Positions 3,818 through 26,669 of a DNA stretch of 27,996 nucleotides are shown piece after piece (within the stretch, counting starts at the first letter, position 1; each line of letters opens with the position of its first letter). This DNA comes from a bacterium (GTDB taxonomy: Bacteria > UBA10199 > 2-02-FULL-44-16 > DYJF01): assembly GCA_041739675.1 (NCBI GenBank), contig JBGSNL010000036.1:1-27996 (forward strand). Reading direction: 5' to 3'. The position numbers and the translations under genes were made by a program. The notes under the pieces are model-generated. The model saw only the letters and a list, made by a program, of their open reading frames with translations. It made no database searches and was not told the DNA's origin.

Positions 3818-5089
3818 ATGGGCATCACAATAGTGCAAAAAAGCGATCTCACTAAGAAAAGGCCCGATGCCTTGAAGGCCCTGATCCTTGCCGGCGGCGC
3901 GGTGACCGGCGGGTCGTTCAAGGCGGGCGGGATAAAGGCGCTCAACGATTATCTTTCAAATTTCAAAGTGACCGATTTTGATATTTACGTGGGCATCAGC
4001 TCGGGAAGCCTAATCGCGGCGCCGCTGATGGGCGGCATAAAACCTGAATCGATACTCAAGAGCCTCGACGGAAAGTCGCACCATTTCAGCGCGCTCACTT
4101 CGTGGCATTATTACAGGCCGAATATTGCGGAGTGGATCTCAAAGCCTCTTTCATTTCTGGGAAAAATATTCGCCTCGCCGGTCTCGCTCTTGAAAGGGGG
4201 CACGCTCGATCTGCCTTCTCTCATCTCGTGGCTCCCCTCCGGTGTCTTTGATAACCGGCCGATCGAACAGTATCTGCGCGAAAACATAGAGCGCAACGGC
4301 CTGACAAACGACTTCAAAACGGCCTATCGCCTGACCGGAAAGAAACTCTACATCTGCGCGATGGCGTTAGACGGCGCCAGGCGCGTGATCTTCGGCCCCG
4401 ATGAAAAAAACGACGTCACGATCTCCGAGGCGGTTCAAGCATCCACGGCGATGCCCGGTTTTTACAAACCGGCGCGCATAAATGGTGTCGATTACGTCGA
4501 CGGCGGCGTGCAGGAGACCGCGAACATCGACATCGCGATCAAGAAGGGCGCCGAGCTTGTCATCTGCTACAATCCGTTTCGTCCCTACGATCCCAAAAAA
4601 TTCGAAGAGCGCATAAATAAGGAGAAGGACAGAGATCGTCTTTCCGAAAGCGGAGTGATGGCCGTTTTGAATCAGATATTCCGCGCCTTCTTTCATACGC
4701 GGCTTCATGTGGCGCTAGATAATTTCAGAAACGATCCCAAGTTCAAAGGCGACATCATTCTCATCGAGCCGCGCCCCGACGATCTGGCGTTTTTCGGTTT
4801 GAATCCGCTCATTCTCTCGAACCGCATCGAGGCCGCGAGCCTGGGTTTCAAGTCGGTGCGCAATTCGATCGAAGAAAGATTCGATGAAGTGAAGGCGATC
4901 TTCGCCGCCTACGGAATCGAGATGACGAAAAAGGGAGTTGAAGAGGAGTTTGAAAAGATCGAAAAGCCCGACGTGAGCGAGACGGAGCTCCAACTTCTTT
5001 TAGAGGGCAGTAAGAGAAGAGCCAAAGATGCAAAGAAGCAAAGAAAAAAGGCCAAAAAAATCCATGGAGCAAAGCAGCCTCAACTTTGA
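3818..5089 (+). CDS. Patatin-like phospholipase family protein
   Basis: Gly-rich LAGGAVTGG, nucleophile motif GISSG (GxSxG), catalytic YVDGG. Confidence 0.92.
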   Translation: MGITIVQKSDLTKKRPDALKALILAGGAVTGGSFKAGGIKALNDYLSNFKVTDFDIYVGISSGSLIAAPLMGGIKPESILKSLDGKSHHFSALTSWHYYRPNIAEWISKPLSFLGKIFASPVSLLKGGTLDLPSLISWLPSGVFDNRPIEQYLRENIERNGLTNDFKTAYRLTGKKLYICAMALDGARRVIFGPDEKNDVTISEAVQASTAMPGFYKPARINGVDYVDGGVQETANIDIAIKKGAELVICYNPFRPYDPKKFEERINKEKDRDRLSESGVMAVLNQIFRAFFHTRLHVALDNFRNDPKFKGDIILIEPRPDDLAFFGLNPLILSNRIEAASLGFKSVRNSIEERFDEVKAIFAAYGIEMTKKGVEEEFEKIEKPDVSETELQLLLEGSKRRAKDAKKQRKKAKKIHGAKQPQL

Positions 5090-6410
5090 CGCGCCGTTTG
5101 AAGAGGGAATTCCGGCCCGGAAGGAACGCGAGGCGATTCCCAAGACGCACAAGGTGAAGGCCAGGGCCGAAGTCGAGGTGGAGGCCGAGGCCGTGGTTGT
5201 GGATGTGGACGTCCCAGCGGAGCCGCATATATTCACGGTCTCCGAGCTCACCTTTTCGGTGAGGGATCTTCTGGAGAACCGTTTTCCAGATGTGTGGGTG
5301 ACGGGCGAAGTCTCCAATTTCAGGAATCCCGAACACAAACATTACTATTTCTCCCTCAAAGACGACCAGAGCCAGATGCGCGCGGTAGTCTTCAACGGAA
5401 AGCAGCGCATACCGTTCAACCTTGAAGACGGCCTTGAGCTCATCTGCCACGGAAAGATCAGTGTCTACAGCGCGCGCGGCGAATATCAGATAATCATCGA
5501 TCACATGGAGCCCAAGGGGAAGGGCGCGCTTCAGCTAGCCTTCGAGCAACTCAAGAAAAAGCTGGAGGCGGAGGGGCTTTTCGCGAAGGAGCGGAAAAGA
5601 GCGCTGCCGTTTCTGCCGCGCAAAATAGGCGTGGTGACCTCCCCAACAGGCGCCGCGATTCGCGATATCATAAACGTCCTTACAAGAAGATTCCCCACGA
5701 TTGAAATTCTTTTGAACCCCGTGAGGGTTCAGGGCGACGGCGCAGCGGCCGAGATTGCTGAGGCGATTGCCGAGATGAATTTGCGCGGTGACATCGACCT
5801 CCTGATAGTCGGGCGCGGAGGCGGCTCTCTTGAAGATCTGTGGGCCTTCAACGAAGAGGCGGTCGCCCGCGCGATCTTCGCGTCCGAAATTCCCGTGATC
5901 AGCGCCGTCGGGCATGAGATCGACTTCACGATCGCAGATTTTGTCGCCGACGTGCGCGCGCCGACACCTTCGGCGGCGGCCGAGATTGCAGTTCCGAGAA
6001 AAGAGGATCTGGAAAATGAGATAACCGATTTCAGGCGCCAGCTTTTCATCGCGATTAAAAACGATCTGCAGACAAAATGGTCAGACGTGCAAAAACTCAA
6101 GGGGAGAATCATCGATCCATCGCGCCGCTTTCCCGATCTCATCCTCCGGCTTGACGGATTTGCCGAGCGCTTGAGACTCGCTGTCACGGGCCGGTTCCAG
6201 GCCTGGGAGCAGCTCCTGTTGAAGCTGGGTAGCAATTTGAAGCATCTTTCCCCCATGCACATCATGGAAAAAGGGTACGCAGTGGTCACCGCAAAGGGAG
6301 TGGAAGGGCCGATTAAGTCCGCAAAATCACTTAAAGAAGGGGCGGGCGTGGACATCAGGTTTTATCAGGGGTTTGCGGCCGCAAAGGTCACGAAAATCAT
6401 TGACGGATAG
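5064..6410 (+). CDS. xseA: Exodeoxyribonuclease VII large subunit
   Basis: VWVTGEVSNF, HYYFSLKD, IGVVTSPTGAAIRDI, RGGGSLEDLWAFNEE, SAVGHEIDFTIADFVADVRAPTPSAAAE; start uncertain. Confidence 0.97.
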   Translation: MEQSSLNFDAPFEEGIPARKEREAIPKTHKVKARAEVEVEAEAVVVDVDVPAEPHIFTVSELTFSVRDLLENRFPDVWVTGEVSNFRNPEHKHYYFSLKDDQSQMRAVVFNGKQRIPFNLEDGLELICHGKISVYSARGEYQIIIDHMEPKGKGALQLAFEQLKKKLEAEGLFAKERKRALPFLPRKIGVVTSPTGAAIRDIINVLTRRFPTIEILLNPVRVQGDGAAAEIAEAIAEMNLRGDIDLLIVGRGGGSLEDLWAFNEEAVARAIFASEIPVISAVGHEIDFTIADFVADVRAPTPSAAAEIAVPRKEDLENEITDFRRQLFIAIKNDLQTKWSDVQKLKGRIIDPSRRFPDLILRLDGFAERLRLAVTGRFQAWEQLLLKLGSNLKHLSPMHIMEKGYAVVTAKGVEGPIKSAKSLKEGAGVDIRFYQGFAAAKVTKIIDG

Positions 6411-6449: not shown

Positions 6450-6677
6450 ATGGCAGAACGCACATTCGAACAGTCGATGGAAGAGCTTGAAAAAGTGGTG
6501 AGGCAGCTGGAGAAGGGCGAGCTTTCGCTCGATTCCTCCGTCGCCGCCTTTGAGAGCGGCATCAAGCTCGCGAAAGAGTGCGAGAAAAAACTCACCGAGG
6601 CAAAGGGGAAGGTGGAACAGTTGGTGAAAGACGAATCGGGCAAGACCCGCGCCCAGACCTTCGAACCCAAGGATTAA
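6450..6677 (+). CDS. xseB: Exodeoxyribonuclease VII small subunit
   Basis: FEQSMEELEKVVRQLEKGELSLDSSVAAFESG; follows xseA; GAGGTGG RBS upstream. Confidence 0.96.
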   Translation: MAERTFEQSMEELEKVVRQLEKGELSLDSSVAAFESGIKLAKECEKKLTEAKGKVEQLVKDESGKTRAQTFEPKD

Positions 6678-6679
6678 AA

Positions 6680-7561
6680 ATGAATCTGGAATCCTATCTC
6701 AAAAGTAAAAAGAGCGAGGTTGAATCGGCGCTGACGAGATCTCTCTCGGACGAGACGATCCCCGCCACTCTCAAAAAATCCATGGAATACAGTTTGTCGG
6801 CTGGCGGCAAAAGGCTCCGCCCGATACTTGTCATTGCCGGCGCGGAGGCGGTTGGAGGTGCTGCGCGAAACGTTATGCCGATAGCTCTGGCCCTTGAGAT
6901 GATACACACATTCTCTTTGATTCACGATGACCTTCCCGCGATGGACGACGACGACCTGAGACGCGGCAAACCCACGAACCACAAAGTGTTCGGTGAGGCT
7001 ACGGCCGTGCTTGCAGGAGACGGTCTTCTTGCCGAAGCCTTTTCCGTTCTGACAAGACACGCGAAAGATTCCGATCCCGCACGCCTGGTCGACGTGATAG
7101 GCGACATCGCGGATGCGACCGGCGCGCGCGGTATGACCGGCGGCCAGCAGATCGACATGGAATCGGCGGGCCGACCGCTTTCGGAAAACGAGCTTTCAAG
7201 GCTCCACGCGATGAAAACCGGAAGGCTCATCACCGTTTCGGCGACAAGCGGCGCCAAATACTGCGGCGCGAAGGCGGAGCAAATAGAGGCGCTTAAAAAA
7301 TACGGGGAATCTATAGGTCTCGCGTTCCAGATCGCCGACGACATTTTAGACATAGAGGGAAATCAGGAGGAGATAGGGAAAGACGTGGGAAGCGATGTTG
7401 AAAAAGGCAAGGCGACCTATCCCGCGATCATAGGGCTTGATGTGTCAAGGCAGAAGGCCGTGTCCCTTGTGGAACAGGCGGTAAACGCGCTTTCAATTTT
7501 CGATGTGCATGCCGATCCGTTGAGAGAGATTGCAAGGTATATAATCGAGCGGAGAAGCTAG
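6680..7561 (+). CDS. ispA: Farnesyl diphosphate synthase / polyprenyl synthetase
   Basis: GGKRLRP, first DDxxD motif SLIHDDLPAMDDDDLRRGKPTNH, second motif FQIADDILD; xseA-xseB-ispA order. Confidence 0.95.
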   Translation: MNLESYLKSKKSEVESALTRSLSDETIPATLKKSMEYSLSAGGKRLRPILVIAGAEAVGGAARNVMPIALALEMIHTFSLIHDDLPAMDDDDLRRGKPTNHKVFGEATAVLAGDGLLAEAFSVLTRHAKDSDPARLVDVIGDIADATGARGMTGGQQIDMESAGRPLSENELSRLHAMKTGRLITVSATSGAKYCGAKAEQIEALKKYGESIGLAFQIADDILDIEGNQEEIGKDVGSDVEKGKATYPAIIGLDVSRQKAVSLVEQAVNALSIFDVHADPLREIARYIIERRS

Positions 7562-7987
7562 ATGAAACATTTTTTTCATGAGATAAGCATCGCGACTACG
7601 AAACCAATCGAGTTCATCGACGTCACCGATCGCGTGCGCGAGGCGGTGGGAAAAAGCGGAATAAAAAACGGTATCGTCAGCATCTTTTCGAATCACACGA
7701 CGGTCGCGGTGAGAATCAACGAGAGGTGTTCAAGACTTCAGAAAGATATGGAAGCGCTTCTGAGAGAGATGGTTCCGGAAGACAGGCCGTACCGCCACAA
7801 TGAAACGACCGCAGACGGCCGCGGCAACGCGCACAGCCATCTCATGTCGCTTCTCATGGGCGGCTCGGAGACGGCACCTGTCAAGGGCGGCAATGTCCAT
7901 CTCGGAACGTGGCAGTCGGTATTTTTCATCGAACTTGACGGGCCGAGAAGTTCCAGAAAACTCACGGTAACCGTTGTGGGAGTTTAA
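7562..7987 (+). CDS. yjbQ: YjbQ family (UPF0047, secondary thiamine-phosphate synthase) protein
   Basis: HTTVAVRINE, NAHSHL, LGTWQSVFFIELDGPR. Confidence 0.92.
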   Translation: MKHFFHEISIATTKPIEFIDVTDRVREAVGKSGIKNGIVSIFSNHTTVAVRINERCSRLQKDMEALLREMVPEDRPYRHNETTADGRGNAHSHLMSLLMGGSETAPVKGGNVHLGTWQSVFFIELDGPRSSRKLTVTVVGV

Positions 7988-9384
7988 TGGACAGAGAAGA
8001 GAGAAAAGGATTTTTTGCGGACGAGTCGTCGCTTAATCTCGAGGACCATGTGATAGAGACATACTGGTTCGAGACGCCGTCCGAGCCTGAAGCCGCCGCG
8101 GCCTCGCTTTGCCGCGAGCAGTCCACGGCGCAGTGGCAGCGGGTGGGTTCAGATGAGGATCTGCGCCCCGTTTACGCCGCGAAAGTGATCGGCCTTGAGG
8201 TTCTGGAAGTTTCCAGCCAGCCTTCATTTGAATCGCCCTTCAACAAGGGCGAAAGATTTTCCCGCTGCCGCGTGAGAATCGCGCACCCGCACAGAAATTT
8301 CGGCGCAAAGATCCCCAACCTCATCACCGCAGTTTGCGGCGAGGGCGCTTTCTTCACTCATCATATAACTGCGATCAAACTTTTGGATCTCACTTTTTCC
8401 GAATCGTATCTTCGGGGTTTTGAGGGGCCCAAATTCGGAACCGAAGGGATAAGGAAAATTTTGAACGTTAAGGACCGCCCAGTATTTTTCGGTGTCGTGA
8501 AACCCAACATCGGGCTTAACCCCGCCGATTTTGCGGATCTTGCTTATGAGAGCTGGCTGGGCGGGCTGGACGTGGCAAAAGACGACGAGATGCAGGCCGA
8601 CACTGAAGTTTCCCCGCTTGAAAAACGCCTTGAGCTCGTCAATTCAAAAAGGATCGAGGCGGAACAAAGGACGGGCGAAAAAAAGATTTTTCTGGCGAAT
8701 ATCACCGATGAAGTTGGCCGTCTCATCGACCTGCACGATCTCGCCGTAAAAAACGGCGCGGGCATGGTGATGGTAAACGGTATGACAACGGGCCTTTCGG
8801 CGGTGAGGATGCTCGCGAAACACAGCGCGGTTCCGATCGTCGGCCATTTCGATTTCATAGCGCCGTTTTCGAGGCTCCCTTTCTTCGGCGTCTCGACTGT
8901 AGTCATGACGAAACTTCAAAGGCTCGCGGGCTTCGATGCGATCATCATGCCGGGCTTCGGATCGCGAATGATGACGGAAGACGAAGACGTTCTTGCAAAT
9001 GCCGATATCTGCGCCGCAAAGCTCGGGCATTTGAGGCGCGTGCTTCCCGTGCCGGGCGGAAGCGACTGGGCGGGCACGCTCCGAGAAGTTTACGACAAAC
9101 TCAGGACGATAGATTTCGGTTTCGTTCCCGGTCGCGGTGTTTTCGGCCATCCAATGGGCGCGGCCGCCGGTGCGAAGAGTTTGAGACAGGCGTGGGAGGC
9201 GATCGCCCTTGGAGTTGGTTTGGCCGAGTATGCAAAGGACAAAGCCGAGCTCAGAGAGGCGATAGAGTTTTTCGGAAAGGGAAGGGTGCCGTATGAAACG
9301 TCTGGCAATTTGTCTGATTCTGATGACGGCGTTTATCCCCGCAAGCTGGGCAAAGGATCCCGCAAAGATCTGGGAGGAGTTTGA
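7987..9384 (+). CDS. RuBisCO-like protein (form IV), resembling the Chlorobium-type IV-Photo clade
   Basis: EQSTAQW, GPKFG, FGVVKPNIGL, GGLDVAKDDEM, LQRLAG, LPVPGG, GRGVFGHPMGAAAGAKSLRQAW; residues equivalent to K177 and K334 replaced by N and R. Confidence 0.95.
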   Translation: MDREERKGFFADESSLNLEDHVIETYWFETPSEPEAAAASLCREQSTAQWQRVGSDEDLRPVYAAKVIGLEVLEVSSQPSFESPFNKGERFSRCRVRIAHPHRNFGAKIPNLITAVCGEGAFFTHHITAIKLLDLTFSESYLRGFEGPKFGTEGIRKILNVKDRPVFFGVVKPNIGLNPADFADLAYESWLGGLDVAKDDEMQADTEVSPLEKRLELVNSKRIEAEQRTGEKKIFLANITDEVGRLIDLHDLAVKNGAGMVMVNGMTTGLSAVRMLAKHSAVPIVGHFDFIAPFSRLPFFGVSTVVMTKLQRLAGFDAIIMPGFGSRMMTEDEDVLANADICAAKLGHLRRVLPVPGGSDWAGTLREVYDKLRTIDFGFVPGRGVFGHPMGAAAGAKSLRQAWEAIALGVGLAEYAKDKAELREAIEFFGKGRVPYETSGNLSDSDDGVYPRKLGKGSRKDLGGV

Positions 9385-9877
9385 GCGCGTCTATGTCCAC
9401 GCGGACTATCACCGCGCGCTCGATACAGCCCACGAAAAATTAGATCCGGCAAAACTTAAGGGTTTCGTCGTCCTCATGAAGGACGGCATCCCCGCCGAGC
9501 GCGCTGCGTTCTACATAGGCTGGGGCGATTACGATTACAGAGGCGTTACAATCGACGGCGAGAAAGTGACGACGCGCAGGGGAAAACCTTACGCTCTTTT
9601 GCAGGCTGGCGATGTGCTGGCGATCTCTGATACGGATCATCTTGGGCGCTCACTCTATCTCAAGCTCATAACGCCTGAGGTCTACATCCCCGCCGACAAG
9701 GCGGACAAGAAGCATCAGTCATGTGTGACCAACGACATCATATTCAAACTGCCGAAGGATGTTTATAAAGAGGACAACGCTGAAAAGGCCATGGAGCTTC
9801 TGGGCGAATGGTTCAAACCCTTCACGAACATCGATGACGCAAAAAATTTCGCGTCGACTCTGGCAAAAAAAGATTAG
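9293..9877 (+). CDS. Secreted hypothetical protein
   Basis: Signal peptide MKRLAICLILMTAFIPASWA; purine-rich upstream sequence; fills the gap to the next gene. Confidence 0.8.
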   Translation: MKRLAICLILMTAFIPASWAKDPAKIWEEFERVYVHADYHRALDTAHEKLDPAKLKGFVVLMKDGIPAERAAFYIGWGDYDYRGVTIDGEKVTTRRGKPYALLQAGDVLAISDTDHLGRSLYLKLITPEVYIPADKADKKHQSCVTNDIIFKLPKDVYKEDNAEKAMELLGEWFKPFTNIDDAKNFASTLAKKD

Positions 9878-10373: not shown

Positions 10374-10506
10374 GATCATAATCTTAATCGTAATCATAAT
10401 CCTAATCGCTTTTTCATCGCAATTTATCGCATCTTATCGCTTTGGAGCGATTAAAGATAAGAGCGATTAAGATGAGGATTAAGATTTAGATTAGGATTAA
10501 GATTAA
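10374..10506. repeat. Inverted hexamer array (AATCNT)n ... (GATTAR)n with central ATCGC repeats; long imperfect hairpin
   Basis: gatcat aatctt aatcgt aatcat aatcct aatcgc is complementary to gattaa gatgag gattaa gattta gattag gattaa gattaa. Confidence 0.85.
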
Positions 10507-10663
10507 GAACACAGCGATTTTCCCCCTGCCTCGTGCATGTAACCATTCAATATCATTTATTTAGCAATACCGCGGCCGAAAGGGGCTCAAAACAGACCTT
10601 CCACAAAAATCCATTTTGAATGATTTCAACGATTTACAAGCAGGGGAATGGGCACTTTATCCT

Positions 10664-25790: not shown

Positions 25791-26669
25791 ATGAAAGAGC
25801 TCAGAATAATTGCGCCTGCAAAGGTTAACATAGTCTTGCGCGTTCTGGGGAAGCGCCCCAACGGTTACCACGATCTTTTCATGATCATGGAAAAACTTTC
25901 GCTGGCCGATGAGATCGTTCTGGAAGAGGCGAAATCCGGAATCGAGATCTTCTGCGATGGCTTCTCCGACGCCGGCATGCAATCCGAAAAAAATCTCGCC
26001 TTTCGCGCAGCGCAAGCCTTCAAAGAAGCGACCTCCGAAAAATCGGGCGTGAAAATCCACCTGAAAAAAAGAATTCCTATAGCCGCAGGTCTTGGCGGCG
26101 GATCGAGCGATGCCGCGGCGGTCTTGAGGGGGCTCAATACTCTCTGGCGGAAAAACTGGGACGCGGAAAAGCTTGCAGGGCTGGGTTCCAAGCTGGGCGG
26201 CGACGTGCCTTTTTTCTGCTTTGGCGGACCTGCCATCGCTGAGGGGATAGGAGATGTCATTACCCCCATTCGCAAACTTCCTAACATCTTCTTTTTACTC
26301 ATAAATCCGGGATTTGCCGTGTCCACGCCATGGGTCTATCAGCAGTACGATAAGTTGGCGGAAAAAGAGAAGTCTTTCGAATTGACAGTGAAGGACAAAG
26401 ATGTTAGCAACGCCGGGCTTTTTGAAGAATTCTGCGATGTTACCTCAAGACTTGAGAACGATCTGGAAAAGGTGACTATCGCTTCGTATCCTGAAATCGG
26501 TGAGATCAAGAGCTATCTTGATAACCACGGGGCAAGAGGGTCATTGATGTCCGGAAGCGGCCCCACTGTTTTTGGGATATTTGAAGACGAGAAAACGCGG
26601 AATGATGCGCTTATAAATATACCAAAGAAAAACTGGAAGGCTTTTCCGGCTGAAAATTTCACGCTTTGA
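25791..26669 (+). CDS. ispE: 4-diphosphocytidyl-2-C-methyl-D-erythritol kinase
   Basis: APAKVN, KRIPIAAGLGGGSSDAAA, LGGDVPFF, MSGSGPTVF. Confidence 0.97.
   Translation: MKELRIIAPAKVNIVLRVLGKRPNGYHDLFMIMEKLSLADEIVLEEAKSGIEIFCDGFSDAGMQSEKNLAFRAAQAFKEATSEKSGVKIHLKKRIPIAAGLGGGSSDAAAVLRGLNTLWRKNWDAEKLAGLGSKLGGDVPFFCFGGPAIAEGIGDVITPIRKLPNIFFLLINPGFAVSTPWVYQQYDKLAEKEKSFELTVKDKDVSNAGLFEEFCDVTSRLENDLEKVTIASYPEIGEIKSYLDNHGARGSLMSGSGPTVFGIFEDEKTRNDALINIPKKNWKAFPAENFTL
26382..26410 (+). promoter_or_regulatory. Possible internal sigma70 promoter in ispE for tRNA-Gln/prs
   Basis: TTGACA-17 nt-TAGCAA with a TG extended -10; weak -10 match. Confidence 0.35.

Follow-up and report, generated by a model that had tools for sequence, protein, structure and literature searches.

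A Photo-clade RuBisCO-like protein in the dxs slot after ispA: a predicted Dxs-independent route to 1-deoxyxylulose 5-phosphate

How does a bacterium that keeps the methylerythritol phosphate (MEP) pathway obtain 1-deoxyxylulose 5-phosphate (DXP) when no gene for the DXP synthase Dxs is found in its genome? The question is raised by a contig of 27,996 nucleotides (JBGSNL010000036.1 of assembly GCA_041739675.1, positions 1 to 27,996 of the forward strand; hereafter the window) from a bacterium of the GTDB lineage UBA10199; 2-02-FULL-44-16; DYJF01. Here ispA, encoding farnesyl diphosphate synthase (6680..7561), is followed by yjbQ (7562..7987) and a gene for a RuBisCO-like protein (RLP; 7987..9384), all on the forward strand. 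The source genome (label G000) comprises 1.9 Mb in 88 contigs and is 94.6% complete. The locus is a real, conserved occupant of the slot in which dxs would stand. We consider it likely that it supplies DXP by some route, and we lean towards the more specific reading that the RLP, a member of the Photo clade, yields DXP without Dxs from 5-deoxyribulose-1-phosphate.

Is dxs indeed missing while the rest of the pathway is kept? The original prediction had called for a genome search, and this showed dxr, mtnP and mtnA to be present, whereas no dxs over cut-off was found with the dxs model in this 94.6% complete genome. The sole match was a 610-aa transketolase whose C-terminal half resembles Dxs. 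We rejected the idea of a split or divergent dxs, since tblastn with two Dxs proteins again led only to the transketolase (25%). In addition to dxr, the genome carries ispD, ispE (25791..26669 of the window, forward strand; TIGR00154, 242.8 bits against a cut-off of 138.7), ispF, ispG, thiG and pdxJ, and an IspH homologue was detected by tblastn only (33%, E 6e-38). With Dxr and IspD to IspH present, and neither Dxs nor hydroxymethylglutaryl-CoA (HMG-CoA) reductase found, its gene content is that of an MEP bacterium in which Dxs alone is missing. Such species number 181 among the 4,400 of Marshall et al. 2023 (PMC10663253), and 172 of them are unexplained. The source genome also encodes a squalene-hopene cyclase (C83:5823-7685) and an HpnH homologue (C82:57955-58950), so that, although small, it likely makes hopanoids.

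The same picture holds for the class of the source genome. We first sampled 61 genomes and later added 15; of these 76, a quality filter (at least 90% complete, at most 5% contaminated) dropped 13 and left 63. Whereas dxr was present in 59/61 genomes, dxs was found in 11/61 of the first set and in 13/63 after additions and filtering. HMG-CoA reductase, the sole mevalonate gene searched, was found in 0/61, and a mevalonate pathway was therefore rejected as the reason for the missing dxs. In G007, which is 100% complete in three contigs, the dxs model gave zero matches at E<=0.001, a first-pass search that can miss weak ones.

What stands in the slot instead? Profile scans bear out the gene calls and their coordinates, starting with the upstream slot markers xseA (5028..6410; TIGR00237, 464 bits) and xseB (6450..6677; TIGR01280, 80.3 bits against a cut-off of 35), both on the forward strand. 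They are followed by ispA (NF045485, 382 bits against 275), yjbQ (UPF0047; TIGR00149, 132.7 against 67.75; PF01894, 133.4 against 27) and the RLP gene (PF00016). The ispA stop abuts the yjbQ start (TAG-ATG, 7559-7564), yjbQ and the RLP gene overlap in TAATG (7985-7989), and no dxs follows ispA, all as originally described. The first 61 genomes include 44 with an RLP gene, and in 38 of these it lies at most 1 kb from ispA, which places the linkage beyond chance and confirms that the neighbourhood is conserved in relatives. The Desulfobacterota genome G099 reads xseA-xseB-ispA-dxs-tlyA, and the relatives G022 and G028 read xseA-xseB-ispA-yjbQ-RLP-tlyA, with the RLP pair exactly where G099 has dxs. 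In the dxs-positive class genomes inspected, dxs is located away from the ispA slot. Within the 38 linked loci, the RLP gene follows ispA directly in seven, and yjbQ is replaced in G008 by two small genes unrelated to it, read from the sequence as a nucleotidyltransferase/HEPN-like pair. The six unlinked cases comprise two apparent contig breaks, two genomes with yjbQ-RLP elsewhere and two without yjbQ beside the RLP gene. An anti-correlation of RLP with dxs, which had also been proposed, was not borne out: RLP occurs in 9/13 dxs-positive and 34/50 dxs-less genomes. As to neighbours of dxs itself, we noted a class II aldolase in G040 and G047 (a fragment in G047), and in G059 dxs converges on lsrF and a dehydrogenase gene (clade A, see below).

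Which type of RLP is this? Over its whole domain, the protein matches the RLP of C. tepidum (PDB 1TEL/1YKW) with 544 bits and RLP2 of R. palustris (2QYG) with 511 bits, whereas the next-best RLP reaches only 220 and form III RuBisCO 178 bits. It is 56-59% identical to Chlorobiota homologues and groups with those and the Chromatiaceae homologues (unrooted FastTree tree, other RLP clades not included). It does not pass as bona fide RuBisCO of forms I-III, given 234 bits with TIGR03326 against a cut-off of 497 plus residue substitutions, and it also misses the MtnW/YkrW enolase and OiaX models (TIGR03332, 172 against 513.6; NF007095, 202 against 409; NF042437, 233 against 700). The metal motif K198-D199-D200-E201 (KDDE) and the phosphate loops are retained, and the active-site motifs are those of known IV-Photo members. 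Compared with the form III enzyme 3A13, Glu119 stands for Asn, Asn174 for Lys and Phe288 for Arg, and the loop-6 Lys is lost. Phe288 replaces what we take to be the arginine of the RuBisCO His-Arg pair that binds the second phosphate; an active site without this arginine would fit a mono-phosphate with a non-polar end. By its best matches, and without a direct DeepYkr alignment, the protein is thus assigned to the Photo clade and not to the DeepYkr clade.

This assignment bears on the methylthioadenosine (MTA)-isoprenoid shunt, the route invoked by the original prediction. In such a shunt the RLP would isomerise methylthioribulose-1-phosphate and YjbQ would replace the cupin methylsulfurylase. 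An RLP with a small neighbour does resemble the R. rubrum arrangement of RLP and cupin, and mtnP and mtnA are present. However, RLP2 of R. palustris, from the same clade, had no detectable activity on methylthioribulose-1-phosphate (Miller et al., PMC5893883), and S-adenosylmethionine (SAM) decarboxylase (PF02675) occurs in 3/63 class genomes and was not found in the source genome, other MTA sources being conceivable. A sulfurylase would moreover be needed in the dehydrogenase-type genomes described below and in the eight RLP loci without linked YjbQ. Profile scans of the window revealed no cupin methylsulfurylase beside the RLP, and no genome-wide search for it was made. We consider this shunt improbable. 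What stands of the prediction is a Dxs-independent route tied to the locus, in line with the dxr, dxs and HMG-CoA reductase counts and the conserved neighbourhood.

How, then, do relatives without the RLP manage? Zn-dependent medium-chain dehydrogenases follow ispA in 9 of the 16 RLP-less genomes with an ispA locus; 3/16 of these loci are cut by contig ends. The dehydrogenases fall into two clades, A and B. Taking E<1e-100 as the criterion for a clade-B orthologue (ADH-B), we found it in 13/17 RLP-less but 1/44 RLP genomes of the first set; the RLP-less genomes without it either have dxs or are of low completeness (67, 80 and 87%). Among the 15 genomes that joined the set once the hypothesis had been framed, ADH-B was present in six of seven RLP-less (the seventh has dxs) and in none of eight RLP-bearing ones. 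The 63 filtered genomes divide into 42 with RLP only, 19 with ADH-B only, one with both and one with neither. All 50 dxs-less genomes carry RLP or ADH-B, and the "neither" genome, G071, has dxs. The genome with both, G042, was rejected as a true case, since its RLP (C24:98434-99732) departs at five otherwise near-invariant sites (Glu44, Gln49, Asn174, Asp199 and Arg383) and lies in a different cluster; this gene is found away from ispA with nucleotidyltransferase-like and CDP-alcohol-transferase-like genes (read from the sequence). A clade-A partner was seen for most clade-B genomes and was not shown for G056 and G062; in the source genome, neither dehydrogenase was found. The informative anti-correlation for the RLP is thus with the Zn-dehydrogenase pair, not with dxs. 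Both states occur inside families f6 (even within one genus), f11, f16 and f19, so that several switches are needed. Squalene-hopene cyclase was present in five of five dehydrogenase genomes, and also in the source genome, which has no pair; we therefore rejected the view that the pair does no more than mark hopanoid synthesis.

Which reaction could such unrelated enzymes have in common? An RLP without adjacent reductase and an oxidase/reductase pair share only a redox-neutral change, from which we infer that the substrate is an isomer of the product. 5-Deoxyribulose-1-phosphate and DXP are isomers in which the carbonyl position differs by two carbons. The route would start from 5'-deoxyadenosine, the radical-SAM by-product, which MtnP and MtnA would convert to 5-deoxyribulose-1-phosphate, a conversion described in PMC6079011, PMC6302742 and PMC13474568. 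The RLP would then bring about a 1,3-shift of the carbonyl to yield DXP for the MEP pathway (Dxr onward), ThiG and PdxJ. With a 5-deoxy substrate, no sulfurylase would be needed. In RLP-less relatives, clade A would oxidise 5-deoxyribulose-1-phosphate at C4 to 3-hydroxy-2,4-pentanedione-5-phosphate, and clade B would reduce the other carbonyl of this compound, again giving DXP. Substrate, product and flux of the RLP step are predictions from gene content and sequence.

The genes for the upstream steps are widely kept. mtnA is found in 60/63 class genomes and in 17/17 outside the class, and mtnP in 5/5 genomes tested. In the source genome both score over cut-off (TIGR01694 for mtnP, TIGR00512 for mtnA), mtnP follows rlmN there and in G035, and approximately 29 frames carry a radical-SAM motif. 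A class II aldolase (MtnB or that of the dihydroxyacetone phosphate (DHAP) shunt) is present in 25/63 class genomes and 0/7 Chromatiaceae; being absent from 38/63, it was rejected as a required upstream step. It occurs in 12/13 dxs-positive against 13/50 dxs-less genomes, a comparison confounded by family. The proposed intermediate of the dehydrogenase branch, 3-hydroxy-2,4-pentanedione-5-phosphate, is the substrate named in the LsrF family name; the LsrF products are presumably acetyl-CoA and DHAP. lsrF adjoins clade-A genes in eight class genomes (G023, G030, G031, G035, G042, G055, G074 and G059). Of these, G059 has dxs and no clade B, a pattern to be expected if A and LsrF only degrade and B makes DXP. 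As a universal upstream step LsrF was rejected: a family search did not find it in the source genome or in 4/5 genomes tested (not in G007, G009, G046 and G065).

Do related loci in other phyla point to the same chemistry? Among the best 80 of 438 GTDB RLP loci, the order pufM..yjbQ-RLP-idi is seen in 9 of 10 Chromatiaceae-type loci, with idi close by in the tenth; in purple sulfur bacteria yjbQ-RLP-idi lies downstream of puf genes and is often followed by lipA. In 23/24 Chlorobiota loci lsrF directly precedes the RLP gene, and 21 also have an aldolase/short-chain dehydrogenase (SDR) fusion, two loci being cut short. The remaining locus (L118) has yjbQ where the 23 others have lsrF with aldolase/SDR. 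The full Chlorobiota order is aldolase/SDR fusion-lsrF-RLP-SDR, often behind bchF; it suggests that the C. tepidum-type RLP acts in deoxypentulose-phosphate chemistry. In Chloroflexota and Desulfobacterales, the sugar clusters around Photo-like RLP genes hold RpiB-like genes, and at L076 the RLP shares its reading frame with an RpiB-like region.

The RLP could also serve sulfur metabolism, stress or sugar catabolism, and its place after ispA would then merely be inherited gene order. In agreement with this, a part in sulfur oxidation and in the response to stress is ascribed to the C. tepidum RLP (PMC5893883), relatives occur in sugar clusters, and synteny inside one class counts as one event. 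Yet the repeated switches between RLP and dehydrogenases within families, the coverage of 50/50 dxs-less genomes and the independent linkage to idi all speak for an isoprenoid role, and we regard an unrelated function as very unlikely.

The clade-B dehydrogenase likewise occurs beyond the class. Of the best 80 of 591 clade-B metagenome loci, which bear no taxon names, 55 carry a pair of these dehydrogenases and an hpnC/D gene is present in 50, with ispH-shc-hpnH-hpnA-hpnG-A-B-hpnC as the typical order (HpnG below cut-off). From this gene order we infer an acidobacterial origin. Sinninghe Damste et al. (PMC5462960) report a Zn-binding alcohol dehydrogenase gene, "ug2", in hopanoid clusters and give it no function; in the same work dxs is missing in six of 31 acidobacterial genomes. 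The dehydrogenases of such acidobacterial-type clusters may have a role in hopanoid side-chain reduction. The pair is also seen in AT-rich contigs outside hopanoid clusters (L184, L189, L203, L204 and L224), and a protein atlas shows look-alike clusters in Acidobacteriota, Cyanobacteriota, Melainabacteria, Nitrospirota and Chloroflexota.

Several observations weigh against DXP formation from 5-deoxyribulose-1-phosphate by the RLP. RLP presence is independent of dxs presence in the class, and dxs was found in each of the 17 genomes tested from Chromatiaceae and Chlorobiota. In Chloroflexota and Desulfobacterales, the genes for close relatives of the RLP belong to sugar-catabolic clusters. All surveyed genomes are incomplete to some degree, and they are related, so that the counts overstate independence and were given no p-value weight. 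The inactivity of RLP2 on the methylthio analogue counts, by analogy, on the same side, as does the RLP2 deletion, which had no phenotype in the reported tests (PMC5893883). In favour, this paper cites a thesis in which RLP2 converted the methylthio analogue slightly after long incubation; it makes no mention of deoxyadenosine or a 5-deoxy substrate. Finally, there is the matter of flux. In B. thuringiensis the flux through 5-deoxyribose disposal was judged low (PMC6079011), and salvage may be too low for a large isoprenoid demand such as the hopanoid genes of the source genome imply. The source genome is without an LsrF to top up the pool, and its class II aldolase could compete for the substrate.

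The low-flux concern and the missing LsrF keep another source of DXP, and a role for YjbQ, in play. DXP might mainly be made de novo, with YjbQ, or LsrF plus a reductase elsewhere, joining DHAP and a two-carbon unit to give a deoxypentulose phosphate or pentanedione phosphate, which the RLP would isomerise or tautomerise. This would remove the flux problem, and it would fit both the Chlorobiota yjbQ in L118, which takes the position of aldolase/SDR-lsrF in 23 other loci, and the LsrF genes beside dehydrogenases in eight class genomes. On the other hand, yjbQ is missing from the slot in 8/38 linked loci, LsrF was not found in the five genomes named above, and 60/63 genomes retain mtnA, most of them without another known outlet; the titles and abstract openings of the YjbQ papers surveyed record no aldolase activity. 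We rate de novo synthesis as rather unlikely.

YjbQ itself was originally paired with the RLP as a functional unit. When 35 RLP-linked YjbQs of three phyla are compared with 19 sampled unlinked ones, all but one of the latter (18 of 19) fall outside the linked cluster, the exception being a long branch, so the notion of a co-inherited subfamily holds; there are nine solved structures among YjbQ homologues. Because the gene is missing between ispA and RLP in 8/38 linked loci, YjbQ is however not an obligate partner and is likely accessory. We may guess that it could raise substrate supply in an aldolase-like manner or correct the wrong C3 epimer. A second, divergent YjbQ-like gene lies elsewhere in the source genome (C30:27645-28175; 47 bits, short of the cut-off), where a PhoH-like gene follows it, and has weak homologues across the class.

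Alternatively, RLP and dehydrogenase pair might only dispose of 5-deoxyribulose-1-phosphate or another by-product. DXP would then be provided by a moonlighting thiamine enzyme, for instance the 610-aa transketolase, or be obtained from prey or host. The retention of the RLP regardless of dxs would agree with this, as would the Dxs-like C-terminal half of the transketolase and the Dxs bypasses known for aceE, yajO and ribB variants (PMC5462960; PMC8791446). However, disposal leaves unexplained why two unrelated modules lie by ispA, idi or ispH-shc-hpnC, and G007 shows no dxs-model match at the threshold given above, weak matches aside. We judge this explanation to be unlikely; DXP formation by the RLP from 5-deoxyribulose-1-phosphate is our preferred reading.

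A much wider picture can tentatively be drawn, although we doubt that all of it will hold. A thiamine-independent, native entry into the MEP pathway via 5-deoxyribulose-1-phosphate would be widespread in bacteria and would have arisen convergently, as Photo RLP (with YjbQ) and as the Zn-dehydrogenase pair ("ug2"). It would be the main DXP source in this class and would feed pigment isoprenoids in green and purple sulfur bacteria; with a reversed LsrF, it would build DXP from acetyl-CoA and DHAP without loss of CO2. The locus bears on three questions: the reaction of Photo-clade RLPs, which PMC5893883 and PMC3368242 state to be unresolved, the former leaving the function of RLP2 open; the MEP bacteria without Dxs (172/181 species, PMC10663253); and the role of "ug2" (PMC5462960). 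If true, terpenoid engineering could draw on a native supply to the MEP pathway that does not depend on thiamine and enters at the pathway's usual bottleneck.

Downstream, the RLP frame extends about 33 residues beyond the RLP domain, which ends near 9285, and shares its last 92 bases (9293-9384) with the next gene. A frameshift was rejected, because C-terminal tails of 10-30 residues vary among relatives and an overlap occurs there too. The next gene (9293..9877, forward strand) encodes a 194-aa protein with a signal-peptide-like start and no Pfam or NCBIfam match. It is conserved downstream of RLP across the order (34-63% identity), follows RLP in many relatives' loci and is missing where tlyA comes next; it probably stands outside the pathway. 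Further along, after a rubrerythrin-like gene, the intergenic stretch 10376-10510 forms an imperfect inverted repeat of short TAATC-type units and their reverse complements.

How does the locus compare with known systems? The IV-Photo RLPs of C. tepidum (1TEL/1YKW), R. palustris (RLP2, 2QYG) and A. vinosum (Alvin_2545) belong to the same clade, but they come from phototrophs with dxs, whereas the source locus has no phototroph context and holds its RLP in the dxs slot of a genome with no dxs found. With the MTA-isoprenoid shunt of R. rubrum and R. palustris (MtnP, MtnA, DeepYkr RLP and cupin methylsulfurylase), it would share MtnP and MtnA, a predicted 1,3-carbonyl shift and the product DXP; the R. 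rubrum RLP effects the same net carbonyl change on the methylthio analogue. It differs in the RLP clade, in the predicted 5-deoxy substrate that needs no sulfurylase, and in that it is apparently the main route and not a side branch. According to a review (PMC8791446) that cites North et al. 2020, DXP is formed from 5'-deoxyadenosine by a similar pathway, and this reaction may already be in print for another enzyme. We found no literature assigning the Photo RLP, YjbQ or the dehydrogenase pair to DXP synthesis, in a search that covered few subscription papers. The 5-deoxyribose or DHAP shunt (DrdK or MtnP, DrdI/MtnA, DrdA/Ald2) has the same first two steps to 5-deoxyribulose-1-phosphate (PMC6079011; PMC13474568), but it ends in aldol cleavage by the class II aldolase that only 25/63 genomes of the class, and none of the seven Chromatiaceae, possess. 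Homologues of the relatives' dehydrogenase pair stand directly before hpnC in hopanoid clusters as "ug2", to which PMC5462960 gives no function; we predict that it forms DXP as one half of a redox pair. DXP is also made without Dxs in laboratory bypasses (YajO, RibB variants, AceE variants and FSA; PMC8791446); these, however, are promiscuous or mutant activities of unrelated proteins, whereas ispA-yjbQ-RLP is a conserved native arrangement. Judged by its genes, the locus would represent a variant RLP-isoprenoid shunt, whose job is predicted to be done in relatives by a second, unrelated set of enzymes.

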